From NCBI GenBank assembly GCA_041571435.1, contig JBFFUI010000010.1:1-56396 (forward strand): DNA of 56,396 nt. The letters run 5' to 3'. The translations under genes were made by a program, and so were the position numbers. Within the stretch, counting starts at the first letter, position 1. The number at the start of each line of letters is the position of its first letter. The stretch comes from Sulfurimonadaceae bacterium. Its GTDB lineage: Bacteria > Campylobacterota > Campylobacteria > Campylobacterales > Sulfurimonadaceae. The notes under the pieces were generated by a model. It had not been told where the DNA came from. It made no database searches and saw only the letters and a list, made by a program, of their open reading frames with translations. Below, piece after piece: positions 41,505 through 48,337 of the stretch.

Positions 41505-44500
41505 ATGAAACGATTGCGCCTGCCGAATACCTTGCTATTGACACTCAAAAAGCTGCCAGTAAAGAGGCTGATATCGAAAAATGTTCCCGACTGGTTTTCG
41601 CACTTAAACATACACAACCGATATGCGCAGGCCGTTTACCTTTTTATACTGATTGAGCTGCTTTTTTTGATCATTTTGGCCATCGGCAAAGAGAACAAGA
41701 CCCAAAACTATCTTGAACAGAAAACCGCTGAAGCGCAGAGTGCTTATGAGACGGTTCATTACGGTTTTTACAAACTTTCAAAGATCGTTTCTAACTCTAT
41801 AGCCAAAGACAAGAATGTTGTCGAGCTGCTTGAAGAGGCCTCTACAACTGACGGTGAGACACGGACTGTGATCGGAGAAGAGATTGAGGAGCACCTGCAG
41901 GAGGACTTCTTTAATCTTAAAGAGCTCTATTTTCAGGAGATCAGGTTTATCCTTCCCAACAACTACAGCCTATTACATCTGAACGTATCGGGACAGCGCG
42001 GTGTTTACCAGAAGGAAGAGCCGGTTGATGGTGAGCTCAAAGGCATTAGCCCGGACCCGTTTCGTTTTACACACCCTCTTTATAACAAGGAGAATCGTGT
42101 TGTCAGCAGCGTTGAGTTCTCACTTTTGTCAAGTGTCCTGACAAAGGAGCTAGAAAACCTGTTGGAGACGCAGCTTCATTTTGTAAAAAAATCGCATATC
42201 CCTGTTCTCTTGCAAGTCGAAGAGGGCAAAAAAACGCCCAAGAACAGTGCAAAGACACCGAAATACCTCTTTGATAAAGGCACGATGGCAGATATCGCTC
42301 TGCAGACCGAAAACGGCGAAAGTTTTTCGATGGCGATGGATGATCAGGAAAATATCGGCACAGTCACTTTTTTAGCTGTCAAGAGGGGTGAGCCGAAAGG
42401 GAATGCCGATTATCTTGTCTATTTCGAAGATGATCCAAAACTGGCCGTTTTAGCCGGTAAATACAACATAATCCAGCTCTCAGGTATGCTTTTGATAGCG
42501 GGTATCTTTATCTTTGTGCTGATCATGATCAACCGAAAAAAAGAGATCGAAATCCATGTCAATGAGAAGACACAGGAGCTTCAGGAGACGAACCAACTGC
42601 TTAGAGAGCGTTATGAGCTCACATTTGCAGGCGTTGGTGACGGTGTCTGGGACTGGGACCTTGTTAACGACAGGGTCTATTTTTCCAAACGCTGGAAAGA
42701 CATGTTGGGTTATGAAGAAGAAGAGATCGAAAATTCGTTTGAAGAGTGGCGCAAAAGAGTCCATCCTGATGATCTGGAACAAGTGATGATCGATGTTACA
42801 GAAAACATGTCGGGAAAAACGGCCAGACTTGAGAACCTGCACCGTTTGCGACATAAGGATGGGCGCTGGATCTGGATACTTGACCGTGGTCAGACAATCT
42901 TTGATGATGAGGGCAAAGGCATCCGCATGCTTGGAACGCATACCGATATCACCGATAAGAAAGCGCTGGAAGACAAGGTGGCTGAAAACGAAGCGAAACT
43001 GATCGAAGCGCAGACGATCGCTCACCTCGGTAGCTGGGAATGGAACCTATCAGACGACAAGATCAGCTGCAGTGATGAAGTATATCGTATTTTGGGGGAA
43101 GAACCGCAAAGCTTTGTGCCTACGTACAGGAGACTTGTCGCATACCTGCCGACATTAGAAAGAGCGCAGTACAGAGATAACCTGCGAAAGGTTTTGCGGG
43201 ATACGGCCCCAGAGTACAGCTACGAATGGAAAATCCTTAGAAAAGACGGATCAGTCGGTTATGCCTATGTAGCGCTTAAACCGATCTACGATGAGAGAGA
43301 TCGGATCGTAAAAGTGACCGGTACATTTTTGGATATTACTGAGCGTAAAGAGGCGGAAAAGAAGCTCTCTACGCTTAACAAGATGCTGGTTGACTCCTAT
43401 AATAAACAGAAGATCAAGACAAAAGAGATCTCCGAAGCGAAGAAAAAGCTGGAGATCAGCCACAGCAAGGTAATGGCAGCAAAAGCGGAGGCCGAACAGG
43501 CGTCGCGTTCAAAGAGTGAATTTTTGGCTAATATGTCGCATGAGATTCGCACGCCGCTCAATGCGATCAACGGTTTTATCAGTCTGCTCAAAGAGAGTGA
43601 GACGGATAAAGAGAAGTTGAATTATCTGAACATTGTCAACAACTCCTCCAGTTCGCTTCTACAGATCATCAATGATATTCTTGATTTTAGCAAGATCGAA
43701 AGCGGAAAACTGATCATCGAAGAGCTGGATTTTGATCCGAAAAAAGAGCTCATCGGCATGTCCGACCTTTTCAAGCTCAAAGCAGTTGAAAAAGATATCA
43801 GACTCTATGTCGATGGTTGTGAGATGCTGCCTGCTACGCTTCACGGCGATGTGCTGCGTCTGAAACAGATCTTTTCCAACCTGCTCTCCAATGCGATCAA
43901 GTTTACTGAGGATAGAGGGACAATAGTATGTAAGGTCGCGTATGAAGAGGGTCGTCTGCTCTTGGACGTCAAAGACAACGGCATCGGTATTCCTGAAGAT
44001 AAGAAGACAGCGATCTTTGAATCGTTCACCCAAGCTGACGGCTCGACCGTTAGAAAATATGGAGGAACCGGGCTGGGGCTGTCCATCAGTGCCAACCTGG
44101 CAAAACTGCTTGGCGGTGAGTTAAAAGTCGAAAGCCAAGAAGGGGTCGGAAGCCGATTCTTCTTTTCGGCACCTTTTTCATCGGTTCAAGAGAGTACTGA
44201 TAGTGAAAATAAAGTAGAGCAAGTTGAAGATGGGGAGAGTACAGAGGTGAGCGTAGAGCCGGCTGAAGAGAAAGCAAAAATGTTAAAAGGTCATACCCTG
44301 GTGGTTGAAGACAATGAAGCGAACCAGATGTTTATCGGTATCGTGTTGCGGAATGCAGGCTTGACGTATGATACGGCGAACAACGGCCTTGAAGCGATAG
44401 AGATGTTCAAATCAGGTAAGTACGAACTGATCCTGATGGATGAGAATATGCCTAAGTTAAACGGCATCGGTGCGACCAAAGAGATATTGCAGATCGAACG

Positions 44501-44660
44501 CGATGAGGGCCTTGAACATACCCCGATTATGGCCTTGACTGCCAATGCGCTTGTCGGTGACAGACAGATCTTCCTTGAAGCCGGGATGGATGACTATCTG
44601 GCCAAACCGCTTGAACCTGCAGAGCTGCTGGAAAAAATAGAGGCGCTGATAGCGTCTTGA
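41505..44660 (+). CDS. Hybrid sensor histidine kinase (2 TM, periplasmic sensor, 2 PAS, HisKA, HATPase, REC)
   Basis: PAS WDWD...RVHPDD, FLANMSHEIRTPLN, NLLSNAIKFT, DNGIGI, GGTGLGL and receiver LILMDENMP...YLAKP. Confidence 0.96.
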   Translation: MKRLRLPNTLLLTLKKLPVKRLISKNVPDWFSHLNIHNRYAQAVYLFILIELLFLIILAIGKENKTQNYLEQKTAEAQSAYETVHYGFYKLSKIVSNSIAKDKNVVELLEEASTTDGETRTVIGEEIEEHLQEDFFNLKELYFQEIRFILPNNYSLLHLNVSGQRGVYQKEEPVDGELKGISPDPFRFTHPLYNKENRVVSSVEFSLLSSVLTKELENLLETQLHFVKKSHIPVLLQVEEGKKTPKNSAKTPKYLFDKGTMADIALQTENGESFSMAMDDQENIGTVTFLAVKRGEPKGNADYLVYFEDDPKLAVLAGKYNIIQLSGMLLIAGIFIFVLIMINRKKEIEIHVNEKTQELQETNQLLRERYELTFAGVGDGVWDWDLVNDRVYFSKRWKDMLGYEEEEIENSFEEWRKRVHPDDLEQVMIDVTENMSGKTARLENLHRLRHKDGRWIWILDRGQTIFDDEGKGIRMLGTHTDITDKKALEDKVAENEAKLIEAQTIAHLGSWEWNLSDDKISCSDEVYRILGEEPQSFVPTYRRLVAYLPTLERAQYRDNLRKVLRDTAPEYSYEWKILRKDGSVGYAYVALKPIYDERDRIVKVTGTFLDITERKEAEKKLSTLNKMLVDSYNKQKIKTKEISEAKKKLEISHSKVMAAKAEAEQASRSKSEFLANMSHEIRTPLNAINGFISLLKESETDKEKLNYLNIVNNSSSSLLQIINDILDFSKIESGKLIIEELDFDPKKELIGMSDLFKLKAVEKDIRLYVDGCEMLPATLHGDVLRLKQIFSNLLSNAIKFTEDRGTIVCKVAYEEGRLLLDVKDNGIGIPEDKKTAIFESFTQADGSTVRKYGGTGLGLSISANLAKLLGGELKVESQEGVGSRFFFSAPFSSVQESTDSENKVEQVEDGESTEVSVEPAEEKAKMLKGHTLVVEDNEANQMFIGIVLRNAGLTYDTANNGLEAIEMFKSGKYELILMDENMPKLNGIGATKEILQIERDEGLEHTPIMALTANALVGDRQIFLEAGMDDYLAKPLEPAELLEKIEALIAS

Positions 44661-44752: not shown

Positions 44753-45097
44753 TTACTTCTCTGTTCTCTGGAGCTCTTTTTTGAACTCTTCCGAAAATGA
44801 AGTCGGCAGGATGGTCCTGTTGATCTTTCTAAAACCGATCTCTACGAATGCGACAACGACTGTACCGGCAGGCAGGGCGGCGATGACAAGCACGATGCTT
44901 ATCTTGATGATGTCAGCTGCCTGTTGTCGGATAAACGCTTTTTCGTCTTGTGTCTTAGCCTGTTTGTAGAGCAGGCGCAGCATGATAAGGGTCTCTTTAT
45001 ATTCGTTATGTGACTGGGCCTTTAAAAGCGCAATTCTCTCTCTGATCTCTTGGCGGCTGATCGTCGGCCGTTTGATGCGTTTAATGTACTTTCTCAT
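44753..45097 (-). CDS. Small hypothetical protein resembling a stand-alone LETM1-like membrane domain
   Basis: DEKAFIRQQAADIIK-[hydrophobic LPAG helix]-ILPTSF pattern. ATGA overlap with the upstream methyltransferase. Confidence 0.6.
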   Translation of the reverse strand: MRKYIKRIKRPTISRQEIRERIALLKAQSHNEYKETLIMLRLLYKQAKTQDEKAFIRQQAADIIKISIVLVIAALPAGTVVVAFVEIGFRKINRTILPTSFSEEFKKELQRTEK

Positions 45098-46038
45098 TTG
45101 TTGGGCACTGCCGTTAAAAAGATATACTCTTTGCCGCTGATACGGACCGTAAATCTCTTCTGTTGTAGATAGCGTTTTGCATAGTCGATGTCGCTAAGCA
45201 GAAGCGAGAGGTCCGATTCGCTGTAGTTGCGCATCTTTGCCCCGTAGACCATTTCTCCATCGATCCAGCGCGAGTTTGGAAACCCCAATATGATAGTGCC
45301 GTTGTCACTGAGATAGTGCTTGACAAGATCCATTAAGAAGGGCTTATAGTTGATGCCTGGGCTCTGCAGCGTGCCGATTGTGATAATAAGGTCGAACCGG
45401 CCTAGTTGCAATGTATCAAGGGCGTTGATGTCGTGGCTGTGGAAGTGCATGTTTGCTGTACTAAAACGGCTTTGCGCCGCTTCTATGGCACTTTTTGCAT
45501 GGTCGATACCGACAAATTCTATCTTCTCAAAGATCTCTTTTGGCAGCAGCTCTTTGATAAGAGCAAACTCATCACCACGGTTGACGCCGAGATTGAGTAC
45601 GCGTGTTTTAGATGCAATGTCAGCGATGTCAAGTGCCTGAAGATAGGCAGTCAGAAAAGCAGGCTCTTCGTTTTTGTTGATCGCAGAAAAGCTTGAACTT
45701 ACGCCGTACTTCTCTGACTTGTCTGCGGCTGCTTCGTCATGAAAAGAGTGTGTCTTTAGTTTTTGAAAACGGAGCATAATCGTCTGATCAGAGGCGGGTT
45801 CAGGTGTCAGCATACGGCAGTTCAGACACGTGGCAAGATCCAGCCAGGAACGCAGTGGACGGTAGAGGTGGCGTTTGCCATTGAGGTTGACCTCTTTGCC
45901 GGCGTAAGCACCGCTACAGAGGTCTGGGTTAAGAACTTCAATGGCAAGCTCCGGCTGCGTCTTCAGTGCTGCTTTGAGTGTGTTGGTGATGGCGAGCATA
46001 CTCTCATCGGTAAACTGTATGATGGGTTGTCCTGACAA
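45094..46038 (-). CDS. Class I SAM-dependent methyltransferase-like protein
   Basis: RVLNLGVNRG (variant motif I), FVGIDH and RFDLIITIGTLQ. The TTG start is uncertain. Confidence 0.82.
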   Translation of the reverse strand: MSGQPIIQFTDESMLAITNTLKAALKTQPELAIEVLNPDLCSGAYAGKEVNLNGKRHLYRPLRSWLDLATCLNCRMLTPEPASDQTIMLRFQKLKTHSFHDEAAADKSEKYGVSSSFSAINKNEEPAFLTAYLQALDIADIASKTRVLNLGVNRGDEFALIKELLPKEIFEKIEFVGIDHAKSAIEAAQSRFSTANMHFHSHDINALDTLQLGRFDLIITIGTLQSPGINYKPFLMDLVKHYLSDNGTIILGFPNSRWIDGEMVYGAKMRNYSESDLSLLLSDIDYAKRYLQQKRFTVRISGKEYIFLTAVPNK

Positions 46039-46250
46039 TATTGGAATCTATGATCGCTATTTTACCTAAAAAAAAGAGGGCTGGCGTTAATTTTTTTCGG
46101 CTTCAAAGACAAACTATTGCTTACTTACAGAAGAGCGGATCGAAGGCTGAAATCGTCATGGGTCTGCAGGTCGTAAAACTCCTGTGATGCCCTGTTTACT
46201 GGAGAATAATGGGGGTGGTTCAACTTAAGGAAATTTTTAGCTGAAAACGA

Positions 46251-46268
46251 TTTTTTTGGGGGTATAAT
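46251..46268 (+). promoter_or_regulatory. Sigma70 promoter for the structured-leader/peptide locus
   Basis: Perfect TATAAT at 46263-46268 preceded by T-tracts (46234-46238, 46251-46257), typical of Campylobacterota. Implies a TSS near 46275. Confidence 0.7.
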
Positions 46269-46274
46269 TTCGCT

Positions 46275-46574
46275 GTGAATCAGGCTGATAGAAAGCTATT
46301 TTGTATACCGACACTGCTTGGCGGTTCGTGTCGGTATACGACCTGAGAAACACGTTGGAATGTCGTTTTTTCCAGGAATGGTTACAGATAAACTGTAGCT
46401 GCAATCCTAGCAAAACAATCTTACCTCAAAATAAATATTGAGGTTACCTTCCGAGTGAAAAAACGTACGATTTATTATTATTCAAGCACAGTCAGGCTTT
46501 TAGCAGGACTGTGCGATGTGCTGTCTTTTGAGCAGAGAAACATTGTGAATAGATTATATAACAGGAGGCAGACA
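46275..46574 (+). ncRNA. Candidate ~300-nt structured leader RNA (no known family recognised)
   Basis: Stems GTATACCGACAC/GTGTCGGTATAC (46303-14/46328-39) closed by TCAGG/CCTGA; GGTTACAG/CTGTAGCT; ACCTCAA/TTGAGGT; GCACAGTC/GACTGTGC closed by TATTCA/TGAATA. Anti-SD at 46521-46530. Confidence 0.6.
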
Positions 46575-46745
46575 ATGCGAACATCTAAATGGTCGATATG
46601 TGAAAGCGGATCAAACCGAAGCCAGTGGTCAATAGGCGGCAAAAGTGTCGGACGAAAAAGTACTAAGAGAAATACAGCGCGTAAAACACAGTGGTCGATT
46701 GGTGGTCAATCATCCAGACAGACACAGTGGTCTATTGGCAGTTAA
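46575..46745 (+). CDS. 56-aa basic peptide with four [QK]WSI[GC] repeats
   Basis: SD AGGAGG (46563-68) 6 nt before the ATG. Sequence MRTSKWSICESGSNRSQWSIGGKSVGRKSTKRNTARKTQWSIGGQSSRQTQWSIGS. Repeat copies differ at synonymous codon positions. Confidence 0.8.
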   Translation: MRTSKWSICESGSNRSQWSIGGKSVGRKSTKRNTARKTQWSIGGQSSRQTQWSIGS

Positions 46746-46757
46746 CTGCAGAACATT

Positions 46758-46808
46758 AAAGGTCTTTACGCTCCAGTTAAGGCAATACGCCTTAACTAAA
46801 GCGCCTTT
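46758..46808 (+). other. Long intercistronic hairpin
   Basis: AGTTAAGGC-AATAC-GCCTTAACT (perfect 9 bp) extended by CGCT/AGCG and AAAGG/CCTTT. Confidence 0.65.
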
Positions 46809-46859
46809 CGTCAAGGGTATTGAAGAAGGAATGGCAGCATTTATCAATAAAGGTGATTG

Positions 46860-47084
46860 ATGTACAAGGTGATCTATAAGTCTCCGTCAAAAGAGCATAT
46901 CAAGATGTTCAAGATGCAAGCAAGTGCCAATGAAGCATTTGCCAATTATAAAATTGACTTGAACGAATTGTCGAAGGAGCAGCGCGAGATGCTTCTGAAT
47001 AAATACGAACTGGACCAGAAAGTGCTCACGTATCAAGAGAGTCTTTTTCTTTCAGTACCACTGGCCGGCGCTCTTTCAGAGTAG
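46860..47084 (+). CDS. Orphan hypothetical protein (74 aa)
   Basis: SD-like AAGGTG just before the ATG (short spacing) and soluble-protein composition. Followed by a terminator-like hairpin. Confidence 0.65.
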   Translation: MYKVIYKSPSKEHIKMFKMQASANEAFANYKIDLNELSKEQREMLLNKYELDQKVLTYQESLFLSVPLAGALSE

Positions 47085-47100
47085 ACTGGCTAACTTTTTT
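47063..47100 (+). terminator. Terminator-like hairpin closing the peptide locus
   Basis: GGCCGG..GCTCT-TTC-AGAGT..CTGGCT followed by AACTTTTTT. A second hairpin CCGGC/GCCGG lies at 47119-47134. Confidence 0.5.
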
Positions 47101-47165
47101 CATACTTTTGTGAACGTCCCGGCGCATTAGCCGGTGATGCAAAACAAACCACTCTCTTTTTTCTT

Positions 47166-47423
47166 TTAGATCTTATCTTTTATGCTGCGAAGCAGTTTGT
47201 CATATTTGGCTTTGAGCTCAAAGTAGGCCTTCTTATAATCGATCTCGTCATCCGTCCTTACCGGTTCGGCTTTCGGTGCTTCGTCGGTCAGGATGACCAT
47301 CTCGTCTTTGCCGTTAATCTTGCGTGTGTCGGAGGGGATCTTGCCGGCCTTAGCCAGTTTTATGACATTAAAGAGGCTGATCTTGTGTTTGATTGCGTAC
47401 TCTTTGAGGGTAAGCTCTTTCAT
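47166..47423 (-). CDS. Small protein with HTH/excisionase-like N-terminus and C-terminal coiled coil
   Basis: LTLKEYAIKHKISLFNVIKLAKAGKIP resembles an HTH_17/MerR-like DNA-binding motif. ATGA overlap with the upstream gene. Confidence 0.7.
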   Translation of the reverse strand: MKELTLKEYAIKHKISLFNVIKLAKAGKIPSDTRKINGKDEMVILTDEAPKAEPVRTDDEIDYKKAYFELKAKYDKLLRSIKDKI

Positions 47424-48337
47424 GCGTTTCCTTTCTGGAAGATAAGGTTTTTTAGACTGCGTTCATCGTCATCACTCGGGAAACTCTCCATGTTCTCCAG
47501 ACGTTTGACGTAGGTGAACTCGGGAGCGTTCTCTTTGAAGAGTGTTTTGATGAAGCCGGTGTCAAGTTCAGGGGCGTTGAGCGCCGATAGAACGGTACAG
47601 TTCTCTGCAGCAAGCTGGTCAAGCCGTTTGATGATCTTCTCATAGTCGCTGGTCGCTGCAAATGAGCCACGCTGAAAGCTGGGAGGATCGATGATGATCA
47701 TATCGTATGGTCCCGCTTTTTTGATGCGGCTCCAGGACTTGAGGATGTTGTAAGGCATAAAACGGCAGCCTCGGATATCCTGACCGTTATATCGGTGGTT
47801 GTCACGTCCGGTCGCGAGTGCCCCTTTGGCCATGTCGACATTGACGACCGATTTGGCACCTCCGGCCATCGCTGCGACTGAGAAGGGGCAGGTGTAGGCA
47901 AAGAGGTTCAGGACGTTTTTGCCTTTGGCGTTGTCTCGGACAAAGTCACGGCCTATCTTCATGTCCGGGAAGAAGCCGATGTTTTGGTTGCTCAGGAAAT
48001 TCAGCTTGTATTTTAGGCCGTTCTCAAAGGCAAAGGTCTCGTCCGGGAGTTCGCCCTCTACAAGTTCCGTCGGCGCACCTTTTTGGTAACGGCGCTGCAC
48101 GACGAGGGCCTCCCATTTGCCTTCAGACCCATAGAACTCTTTCAGCATATCGATGATGGCTTCTTCTTGGTAATCAGGGGCAAAAAAAGCAGCATAGAGT
48201 ACCTTGTCAGCGCTGTCGACAGTCAGGAACTTAAAGGCGCCGTAAAAGCCGCCGCGACCGTGAAAGAGACGGGTGTACTCTTCGTTTTTCTCTTTGGCGT
48301 TGGTAGCCAGCAGTTGTTGTAGCTCTTCTAAGGTCAT
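47420..48337 (-). CDS. RlmI/RlmK-like class I SAM-dependent methyltransferase
   Basis: RLFHGRG, NIGFFPDM, NVLNLFAYT, VNVDM and IIIDPPSF. Confidence 0.9.
   Translation of the reverse strand: MTLEELQQLLATNAKEKNEEYTRLFHGRGGFYGAFKFLTVDSADKVLYAAFFAPDYQEEAIIDMLKEFYGSEGKWEALVVQRRYQKGAPTELVEGELPDETFAFENGLKYKLNFLSNQNIGFFPDMKIGRDFVRDNAKGKNVLNLFAYTCPFSVAAMAGGAKSVVNVDMAKGALATGRDNHRYNGQDIRGCRFMPYNILKSWSRIKKAGPYDMIIIDPPSFQRGSFAATSDYEKIIKRLDQLAAENCTVLSALNAPELDTGFIKTLFKENAPEFTYVKRLENMESFPSDDDERSLKNLIFQKGNA

Follow-up and report, generated by a model that had tools for sequence, protein, structure and literature searches.

A promoter and structured leader RNA shared among small-protein genes of Sulfurimonadaceae, joined to a message for a WSIG-repeat peptide

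What kind of system is the short plus-strand unit at positions 46225 to 47101 of contig JBFFUI010000010.1 (56,396 nt, hereafter the window; assembly GCA_041571435.1), which consists of a promoter, a long leader, a gene for a 56-aa peptide with four Trp-Ser-Ile motifs and a second small open reading frame (ORF2)? The contig belongs to a member of the Sulfurimonadaceae, a family of key sulfur oxidisers in sediments, vents and redox-clines. A preliminary description made from the letters of the window had proposed an undescribed, self-contained and post-transcriptionally controlled small-protein module on the plus strand of a minus-strand neighborhood. Our analysis confirms that the locus is a real, conserved and undescribed gene unit of Sulfurimonadaceae. 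On both sides the unit is flanked by minus-strand genes (44753-46038 and 47166-48337), Rfam, Pfam and NCBIfam hold no match to it, a search of the ESM Atlas gave no usable lead, and the literature that we searched at the level of listings and abstracts contained no study on RNA or small-protein regulation in Sulfurimonadaceae and none on these elements. The unit is not self-contained, however, but a mosaic: its promoter and conserved leader domain are common to other genes, where they normally serve a Cys-rich secreted protein, and are here joined to a message for the peptide and ORF2.

Comparison with relatives separates the selected parts of the unit from the rest. We used sets of 301 same-family genomes for BLASTN and promoter pattern searches and of 353 for peptide and ORF2 profile searches, and we aligned the unit of the window's own genome (G000) with those of the near-identical G002 and of G004, a member of the same genus. 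Identity to G004 is 91% in the promoter, with neutral-looking flanks at around 50%, 85% in the 5′ leader domain (46269-46436), 54% in the rest of the leader (46437-46574), 70% in the peptide coding sequence, 48% between the ORFs and 67% in ORF2. Since 60-78% of the synonymous sites of both ORFs differ between the two genomes (proportion of synonymous differences, pS, about 0.6 in the adjacent coding sequence), the contrast of 85% with 54% places the 5′ domain, and not the 3′ part of the leader, under strong selection. Both ORFs are coding and under purifying selection, with ratios of nonsynonymous to synonymous differences (pN/pS) of 0.17-0.36 for the peptide and 0.12-0.47 for ORF2. Searches in relatives, a kind of check that the preliminary description had called for, recovered the leader in 41 of 301, the peptide in 8 of 353 and ORF2 in 56 of 353 family genomes. 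Conservation of this kind shows that neither the two ORFs nor the promoter and the 5′ domain of the leader are chance features.

The promoter (46225-46268, plus strand) is a 44-bp motif of the form TTAAG-N6-TTTAGC...GnGTATAAT, in which TTAAG (46225-46229) and TTTAGC (46236-46241) are followed by a T-tract and by GGGTATAAT with the -10 box TATAAT at 46263-46268, exactly where such a box had been noted before; a promoter scan called CTGAAA-16-TATAAT with a 10/12 match. Using a position weight matrix (PWM) built from relatives, we found only two cassette sites in the 2.16-Mb genome, one in the window (61.8 bits) and one on another contig, C15 (C15:15349, minus strand; 62.0 bits), while the third-best site scored 19 bits. 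The promoter is thus specific and not a general consensus. Across the family, the pattern TTAAG-N6-TTTAGC-N2-AAA-N13-GnGTATAAT with at most 3 mismatches is present in 104 of 301 genomes, compared with 15 for a reversed control. Twenty more of these promoter sites were fetched, and the 16 that scored above 25 bits preceded a gene for an acidic protein of ~80 aa (12 sites, 2 of them with a SnoaL-like gene next in line), a Cys-rich protein gene (3 sites) or lay on a palindromic contig (1 site), so that with the WSIG-repeat peptide three kinds of orphan small-protein genes stand behind this promoter in relatives (hereafter the regulon promoter). In genus g2 (L125-L143), no gene stands behind the regulon promoter as often as that of the acidic family, which has ~77-90 aa (MTxKDLEFxLEL...DDDDYGYVQKFP...), no Pfam family and leaders of its own of ~40-260 nt.

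Within the promoter, the half-sites TTAAG and TTTAG repeat 11 bp apart at around -50 and -39, upstream of a poor -35 region and a strong -10 box, an arrangement that suggests a dedicated activator. Pho boxes of OmpR/PhoB-type regulators are the familiar case of this kind: promoters that depend on an activator and in which direct-repeat half-sites, spaced by 10-11 bp, precede a weak -35. The regulon promoter is like them in its 11-bp repeat spacing, its poor -35, its strong -10 and its one to few sites per genome; unlike them, it has half-sites that match no box that we can name, and its putative activator is proposed from sequence.

The leader that follows is about as long and as structured as first described: From a presumed start at about 46275 to the ATG at 46575 it measures 300 nt, with a minimum free energy (MFE) of -96 kcal/mol (z = -4.33) that none of 100 shuffles reached. 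Its conserved 5′ domain, in which a covariance model (CM) matches 46301-46423 with 92.4 bits on the plus strand, is confined to the family as far as our searches extended. BLASTN with 46225-46450 gave matches in the above 41 genomes from 9 of 23 genera, and these matches spanned at least 170 nt in 23 genomes. The CM detected it in 19 of another 150 genomes of the family, whereas 140 genomes that represent 25 other families of the order gave no match. When 185,579 species genomes were scanned with a loose pattern, 88 stretches matched; of the 80 that were fetched with their flanks, 19 passed the CM, all labelled Sulfurimonas, Sulfurimonadaceae, Sulfuricurvum, Campylobacterales or, once, "Arcobacter sp.", and the other 61 failed it and were set aside as chance matches in other phyla. 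Rfam 15, a check that had likewise been proposed, gave no match at gathering thresholds over the whole window and, at E values up to 10 over 46000-47250, only 4 sub-threshold matches, the best being antisense_SR1 on the minus strand with 23.5 bits against a gathering threshold of 45.

The genes that this leader normally precedes explain why we call the unit a mosaic. Of the 30 loci that we inspected, 19 had the Cys-rich secreted ORF as the first gene downstream and 6 the WSIG peptide; the remaining 5 comprised an acidic ~80-aa protein, 2 stand-alone copies (in G059 and G101), 1 locus with no small ORF and 1 contig end. The Cys-rich protein has 68-83 aa, a signal peptide and the pattern C-x7-C-x3-C...C-x3-C-x7-C, and its ATG lies ~25-40 nt past the CA-rich tail of the RNA (described below) with no terminator between. 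G000 itself carries both versions: besides the window copy, the CM detects a second one (C15:15151-15273, minus strand; 46.4 bits) with the same promoter, upstream of a 71-aa Cys-rich ORF. This Cys-rich gene is part of a small-protein island (C15:14898-16350; L046:2399-3851) in which genes for an acidic 85-aa orphan and a SnoaL-like protein (PF07366, 98 bits) diverge from it, and a protease-like and a RimK-like gene lie past it.

Inside the domain, three hairpins and an invariant tail follow one another. Hairpin P1 (46303-46339, plus strand; arms 46303-46314 and 46328-46339) encloses a 13-nt loop, UGCUUGGCGGUUC (46315-46327), whose core CUUGGCGGUU is nearly invariant, and its arms covary: In the alignment, which was fitted to the model and consists of mutually related sequences, as holds for all P1, P2a and P2b counts, 10 of 12 pairs have changed in both partners and the share of paired cells is 93.6%, as against 27-50% in slid controls, with a covariation score that 0 of 500 shuffles reached. 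Hairpin P2a (46342-46376, plus strand) is closed by CCUG (46342-46345) and CAGG (46373-46376), with compensatory changes at 2 of the 4 closing pairs (CG 20 / UA 3; GC 12 / AU 4), and is part of the MFE form in G000. Hairpin P3 (46380-46400, plus strand), formed by GGUUACAG and CUGUAGCU around a loop AUAAA, was judged from per-sequence folds and left out of the CM because MAFFT could not align it; a hairpin occupies this position in 27 of 27 aligned copies, with stems as different as ACAG/CUGU, ACGG/CCGU, AUGG/CCAU, GCAG/CUGC and CUGC/GCAG. After P3 comes a CA-rich tail of 20 nt (46404-46423, plus strand; AUCCUAGCAAAACAAUCUUA, family consensus AUCCUAACAAAACAAUCUUA) that is invariant or nearly so in the aligned copies. 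The long leader does contain a selected structured RNA, as the preliminary description had it. No multi-helix junction or pseudoknot was shown for the domain, whose supported helices are P1, P2a and P3, and a small ORF inside it, considered in view of similar translations (...NPNKTILL), was rejected: ATG frames of at least 25 aa are absent from many loci, and the likeness follows DNA identity.

Two further observations concern the P1 loop. In G125 (L024), the 13-nt loop is inverted, reading GAACCGCCAAG, between intact arms and in an otherwise intact domain, and a contig of G276 (L144, G276:C2:17300-19300) is a perfect palindrome centered on the P1 loop, with two promoter copies facing each other. 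Such arrangements may have arisen through template switching that inverted sequence at a hairpin, or may be artefacts of assembly there.

The 3′ strand of P2a also starts an alternative pairing, P2b, in which GUUUUGUU.AGGA can bind the tail; in 17 of 24 sequences the MFE form contains P2b. P2a and P2b thus compete as a candidate switch, one that has no terminator after the domain and only weak pairing of the tail with a ribosome-binding site (RBS) to act through; one G-to-A change disrupts P2b, while P2a has a compensating change for it.

Between this domain and the peptide gene, the window has a fast-evolving spacer (46437-46574, plus strand), which even compared with near-identical G002 is only 85% identical, while the other segments of the unit reach 91-98%. 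It contains a hairpin at 46486-46514 (plus strand) and, at 46521-46530 (plus strand), a strand CUGUCUUUUG that is predicted to pair locally with the Shine-Dalgarno (SD) sequence of the peptide gene; substitutions between G000 and G002 cluster around this masking strand. The predicted probability that the SD is unpaired is 0.02 in G000 and 0.12-0.45 in three other long-leader loci, where the pairing partners differ, and we therefore dismissed conserved SD masking as a feature of the peptide leader. A box CUUCCGAG-GAAAAA-GUAC (46447-46471) is common to the peptide-linked long leaders of G000, G002, G004, G135, G090 and L233 and absent from the leaders linked to Cys-rich genes.

The peptide gene itself (46575-46745, plus strand) has the 56 codons and four WSI motifs first ascribed to it, and its SD, AGGAGG at 46563-46568, precedes the ATG by 6 nt. 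Its product, MRTSKWSIC...QWSIGS, is built of four [KQ]WSIG repeats with ~13 basic residues and 1 acidic residue (net charge ~+12), and it is predicted to be disordered, with an AlphaFold2 model that has no secondary structure and a mean predicted local distance difference test (pLDDT) score of 55. To our knowledge, the Trp-Ser-Ile-Gly repeat is no known motif. Neither Pfam-A nor NCBIfam has a family for the peptide; an index of 5.8 billion proteins yielded 2 matches and a HMMER pass over 1.84 billion representatives 3 true clusters, besides three long repeat proteins (SQWRVGE-type, 584-1118 aa) that match the profile and that we judged spurious. Solid relatives comprise the 8 family genomes, which do not include weak profile matches in G163 and G147, and 4 metagenome contigs.

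All 12 peptide genes examined at these loci stand behind the regulon promoter, recognized by PWM in 7 cases, on 4 of 4 metagenome contigs, and by eye in G090, where the spacer is 1 nt shorter. What lies between promoter and peptide gene varies. G000, G002, G004, G135 and L233 have the full RNA and spacer in a leader of ~300 nt, G090 has an RNA with P1 and without the tail, and G121 has a leader of 84 nt that keeps about the first 30 nt of the WSIG-type leader. In G121, a TAA stop shortens the peptide gene (L040, G121:C1:79784-79951) to 48 codons, and the final repeat is gone. What follows the peptide gene varies as well: ORF2, a SnoaL-like gene, a gene for an unrelated 481-aa protein, or none.

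ORF2 (46860-47084, plus strand) encodes a 74-aa alpha/beta protein for which the preliminary description had recognized no family, and none emerged: Pfam and NCBIfam gave only sub-threshold matches of ~15 bits or less, and among 30 members of the ORF2 family compared with Pfam the only match, in one member, was to an unrelated domain (E 0.0014). An AlphaFold2 model with a pLDDT of 84.4 predicts the order b-a-b-b-a-a-b, and fold searches of the PDB with this model found no clear match, the best being an RNase P protein at E 0.33 with Foldseek and glyoxalase-type half-domains at Z 3.8 with VIA-align. The 56 family genomes with ORF2 homologues cover 9 genera and usually encode a 70-aa protein in unrelated contexts; only close homologues lie behind the regulon promoter, after the peptide in G000, G002, G004 and L233 and after the Cys-rich gene in G209 and G260. 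Distant 70-aa homologues (L077, L079, L080, L084, L087) lie between genes that by eye are CspA-like and CDGSH-motif genes, neighbors that hint at a stress-related setting.

A hairpin between the two ORFs had been described, and it exists as a 9-bp stem (46773-46795, plus strand; arms 46773-46781 and 46787-46795; region z = -3.33) that is kept in G002 and lost in G004. The U-tailed terminator hairpin claimed for the end of the unit fared less well. At the weak terminator-like site at 47064-47101 (plus strand; z = -2.65 for 47030-47110), an imperfect hairpin (47064-47090) and a U6 run (47096-47101) are present, but the run begins 5 nt past the stem and a terminator scan made no call.

The neighbors of the unit in the window are S-adenosylmethionine (SAM) methyltransferase genes on the opposite strand. 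A gene for an 85-aa orphan protein (MKELTLKEYAIKHK...; 47166-47423, minus strand) overlaps the start of the RlmI-like methyltransferase gene (PF10672); it has no family match, and its position is kept in G002 and G004. At a distance of 1.6 kb upstream of the promoter lies a gene (41505-44660, plus strand) for a large hybrid sensor kinase, in whose translation we recognized PAS, HisKA, HATPase and receiver regions by eye. As a test of mobile origin, we searched plasmid and phage collections, which held no match to the unit.

How would such a unit work? The explanation that we favor, tentatively and at a little less than an even chance, combines activator-controlled transcription with a leader RNA acting in cis. 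The unit is one of two copies in G000 of a Sulfurimonadaceae-specific cassette, made of the 44-bp promoter and a leader RNA of ~150 nt in the order P1 with its invariant CUUGGCGGUU loop, P2a, P3 and the invariant CA-rich tail, whose usual cargo, in most relatives and on C15, is the small Cys-rich secreted protein. In the window copy, the fast-evolving spacer of ~135 nt links this cassette to the two-gene message of peptide and ORF2. The putative activator of the regulon would turn on transcription, presumably from about 46275, and the leader RNA would then act in cis on the stability or translation of the message, probably by way of a factor or ligand that recognizes the loop and the tail, both invariant, together with the competition of P2a and P2b; the ribosome site of the peptide may in addition be masked by the local, unconserved helix. 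Of the roles that the preliminary description had considered, a gate of the riboswitch or thermometer type and a dual-function RNA are conceivable, though only for the 5′ domain.

Several observations weigh against this explanation. The conserved domain lies ~135 nt from the peptide RBS in the window, and since the SD-masking helix is not conserved either, a direct effect in cis on translation of the peptide would have no obvious structural route. Peptide genes stand behind the same promoter without any RNA in G153, G225 and three metagenome contigs, with leaders of 27-33 nt, and conversely the two stand-alone copies have the RNA without a co-directional ORF. P2b, although 86% paired, shows almost no covariation and is supported by conservation only. 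Duplexes of the tail with the RBS of downstream genes are weak, with a mean of -6.1 kcal/mol compared with -4.6 kcal/mol for shuffled sequences and a clear signal only in G276 and G293, and on these energies we rejected the tail as an anti-SD strand. The helices carry no strand bias, with G-U pairs 8 and A-C pairs 13 in P1 and a mean fold of -36.0 kcal/mol for the minus and -34.1 kcal/mol for the plus strand (the plus strand being more stable in 11 of 25 cases), so the plus-strand assignment is owed to the conserved promoter and ORFs. Finally, all 20 sequencing runs listed for 46200-47150 are DNA or metagenome contigs and none is RNA, and we therefore infer the start site, the strand and the co-transcription of the unit from DNA.

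The stand-alone copies in particular invite an explanation that we consider unlikely yet worth weighing, namely that the 5′ domain is mainly a trans-acting small RNA (sRNA), cut from the 5′ untranslated region (UTR) or made alone, with the CA-rich tail and perhaps the loop as seed, and that the ORFs merely share its promoter. The copies in G059 and G101 lack the regulon promoter and are followed by a convergent gene, a self-contained hairpin replaces the 5′ strand of P2b in both and frees the tail, and in G101 the tail precedes a terminator-like hairpin GGGCGU...ACGCCC with a U-run. The better supported P2a would also leave the tail single-stranded, and the tail is nearly invariant in the window despite its distance from any RBS. 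Against this stands the same-strand ORF that follows in 25 of 27 aligned copies with no terminator seen after the tail, as well as a hairpin at 46424-46445 in the window that has no U-tail on the plus strand; any trans target is hypothetical, and the pairing of the tail with the RBS of the Cys-rich gene is weak. A promoter and terminator of its own and no ORF, as expected for a stand-alone sRNA, are found only in G101 and perhaps in G059, and not in the window.

Because a strand signal is lacking, we also keep a role at the level of DNA among the readings, although we rate it as very unlikely: P1, as a palindrome, would together with the boxes beside it serve the transcription factor of the regulon as operator or architectural sites, or would form a cruciform. 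The equal folding of both strands would fit, as would the inverted P1 loop of G125 in its intact surroundings and the G276 contig that is palindromic around this loop. However, the compensatory changes at 10 of 12 positions preserve the complementarity of the P1 arms while each half-site drifts, which fits base pairing and not a fixed protein half-site, the P3 hairpin is kept with unrelated sequences, and the block lies entirely downstream of the -10 box and upstream of the ORF. Highly improbable, in our estimate, are explanations centered on the peptide, which would be the precursor of a ribosomally synthesized and post-translationally modified peptide (RiPP), an RNA-binding feedback peptide or a Trp-codon leader peptide gating ORF2. 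The near-identical basic repeats, the predicted disorder and the ORF2 gene that follows the peptide at four loci would suit them, and two of them, a repeat-core RiPP precursor and a peptide that autoregulates its own leader, had been proposed before. Neither proposal found support: the absence of a conserved modifying enzyme beside the peptide argues against a RiPP precursor, and autoregulation fits poorly with peptide genes that lack the RNA element and with the many genomes that have the RNA and no peptide gene. No enzyme gene is common to the 12 peptide loci, for which it was not checked whether the SAM methyltransferases of the window flank the peptide in other genera. Against a Trp attenuator, purifying selection extends over the whole peptide and beyond its Trp codons, the intergenic hairpin is unconserved, and the downstream gene is an orphan of 74 aa whose homologues mostly stand alone or after other genes. 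The RiPP, self-feedback and attenuator versions are all disfavored because both leaders and downstream genes vary among the peptide loci.

The locus lies close to known kinds of systems, to which it adds a new orphan RNA motif and new small-protein families. Orphan structured 5′-UTR motifs and riboswitch candidates are well known from comparative genomics, and the RNA described here is like them in its multiple hairpins, covarying stems and invariant loops, its position between promoter and ORF, and its competing P2a and P2b; unlike them, it heads genes for orphan small proteins instead of metabolic or transport genes, also occurs without an ORF, and has no match in Rfam up to E 10. Small basic or repeat-built stress proteins are known too, among them Sra, which associates with ribosomes, and the YciG family with its KGG repeats. 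With 50-60 aa, a hydrophilic, repeat-built and strongly charged sequence, predicted disorder and a gene beside those of other small proteins, the WSIG peptide resembles them, yet it shares no sequence similarity with them and has no Pfam or NCBIfam match, so that a stress role would be by analogy only. An RNA found both as mRNA leader and as stand-alone unit has a parallel in the SAM-I riboswitch/sRNA of Desulfovibrio vulgaris, which is reported to act both as a leader and in trans (10.1101/803072); by comparison, the stand-alone form here was seen in only two genomes, and both ligand and trans target are hypothetical.

A bolder reading, which we regard as quite unlikely, would make the RNA a new class that senses a signal (a ligand, metal or redox state, or temperature), works both as leader and as trans-acting sRNA, and heads a regulon of orphan small proteins. 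As part of this joint reading, and no more probable, the regulon would comprise Cys-rich periplasmic, acidic, basic WSIG-repeat, 70-aa alpha/beta and SnoaL-like proteins, among which the disordered WSIG peptide would act in stress by binding nucleic acids or ribosomes and would trade places with the acidic protein.

For the Sulfurimonadaceae, the locus offers a sharply defined promoter motif, a covarying RNA that is absent from Rfam, and orphan small-protein families, three or four in number, whose genes are shuffled behind this promoter. Peptide genes that retain the whole RNA leader, a part of it or none amount to a deletion series made by nature. Should the RNA sense a signal, it would represent a new regulatory class tied to both periplasmic and cytoplasmic small proteins; if it senses none, the family would still present a clean case of the reuse of a promoter-leader cassette.

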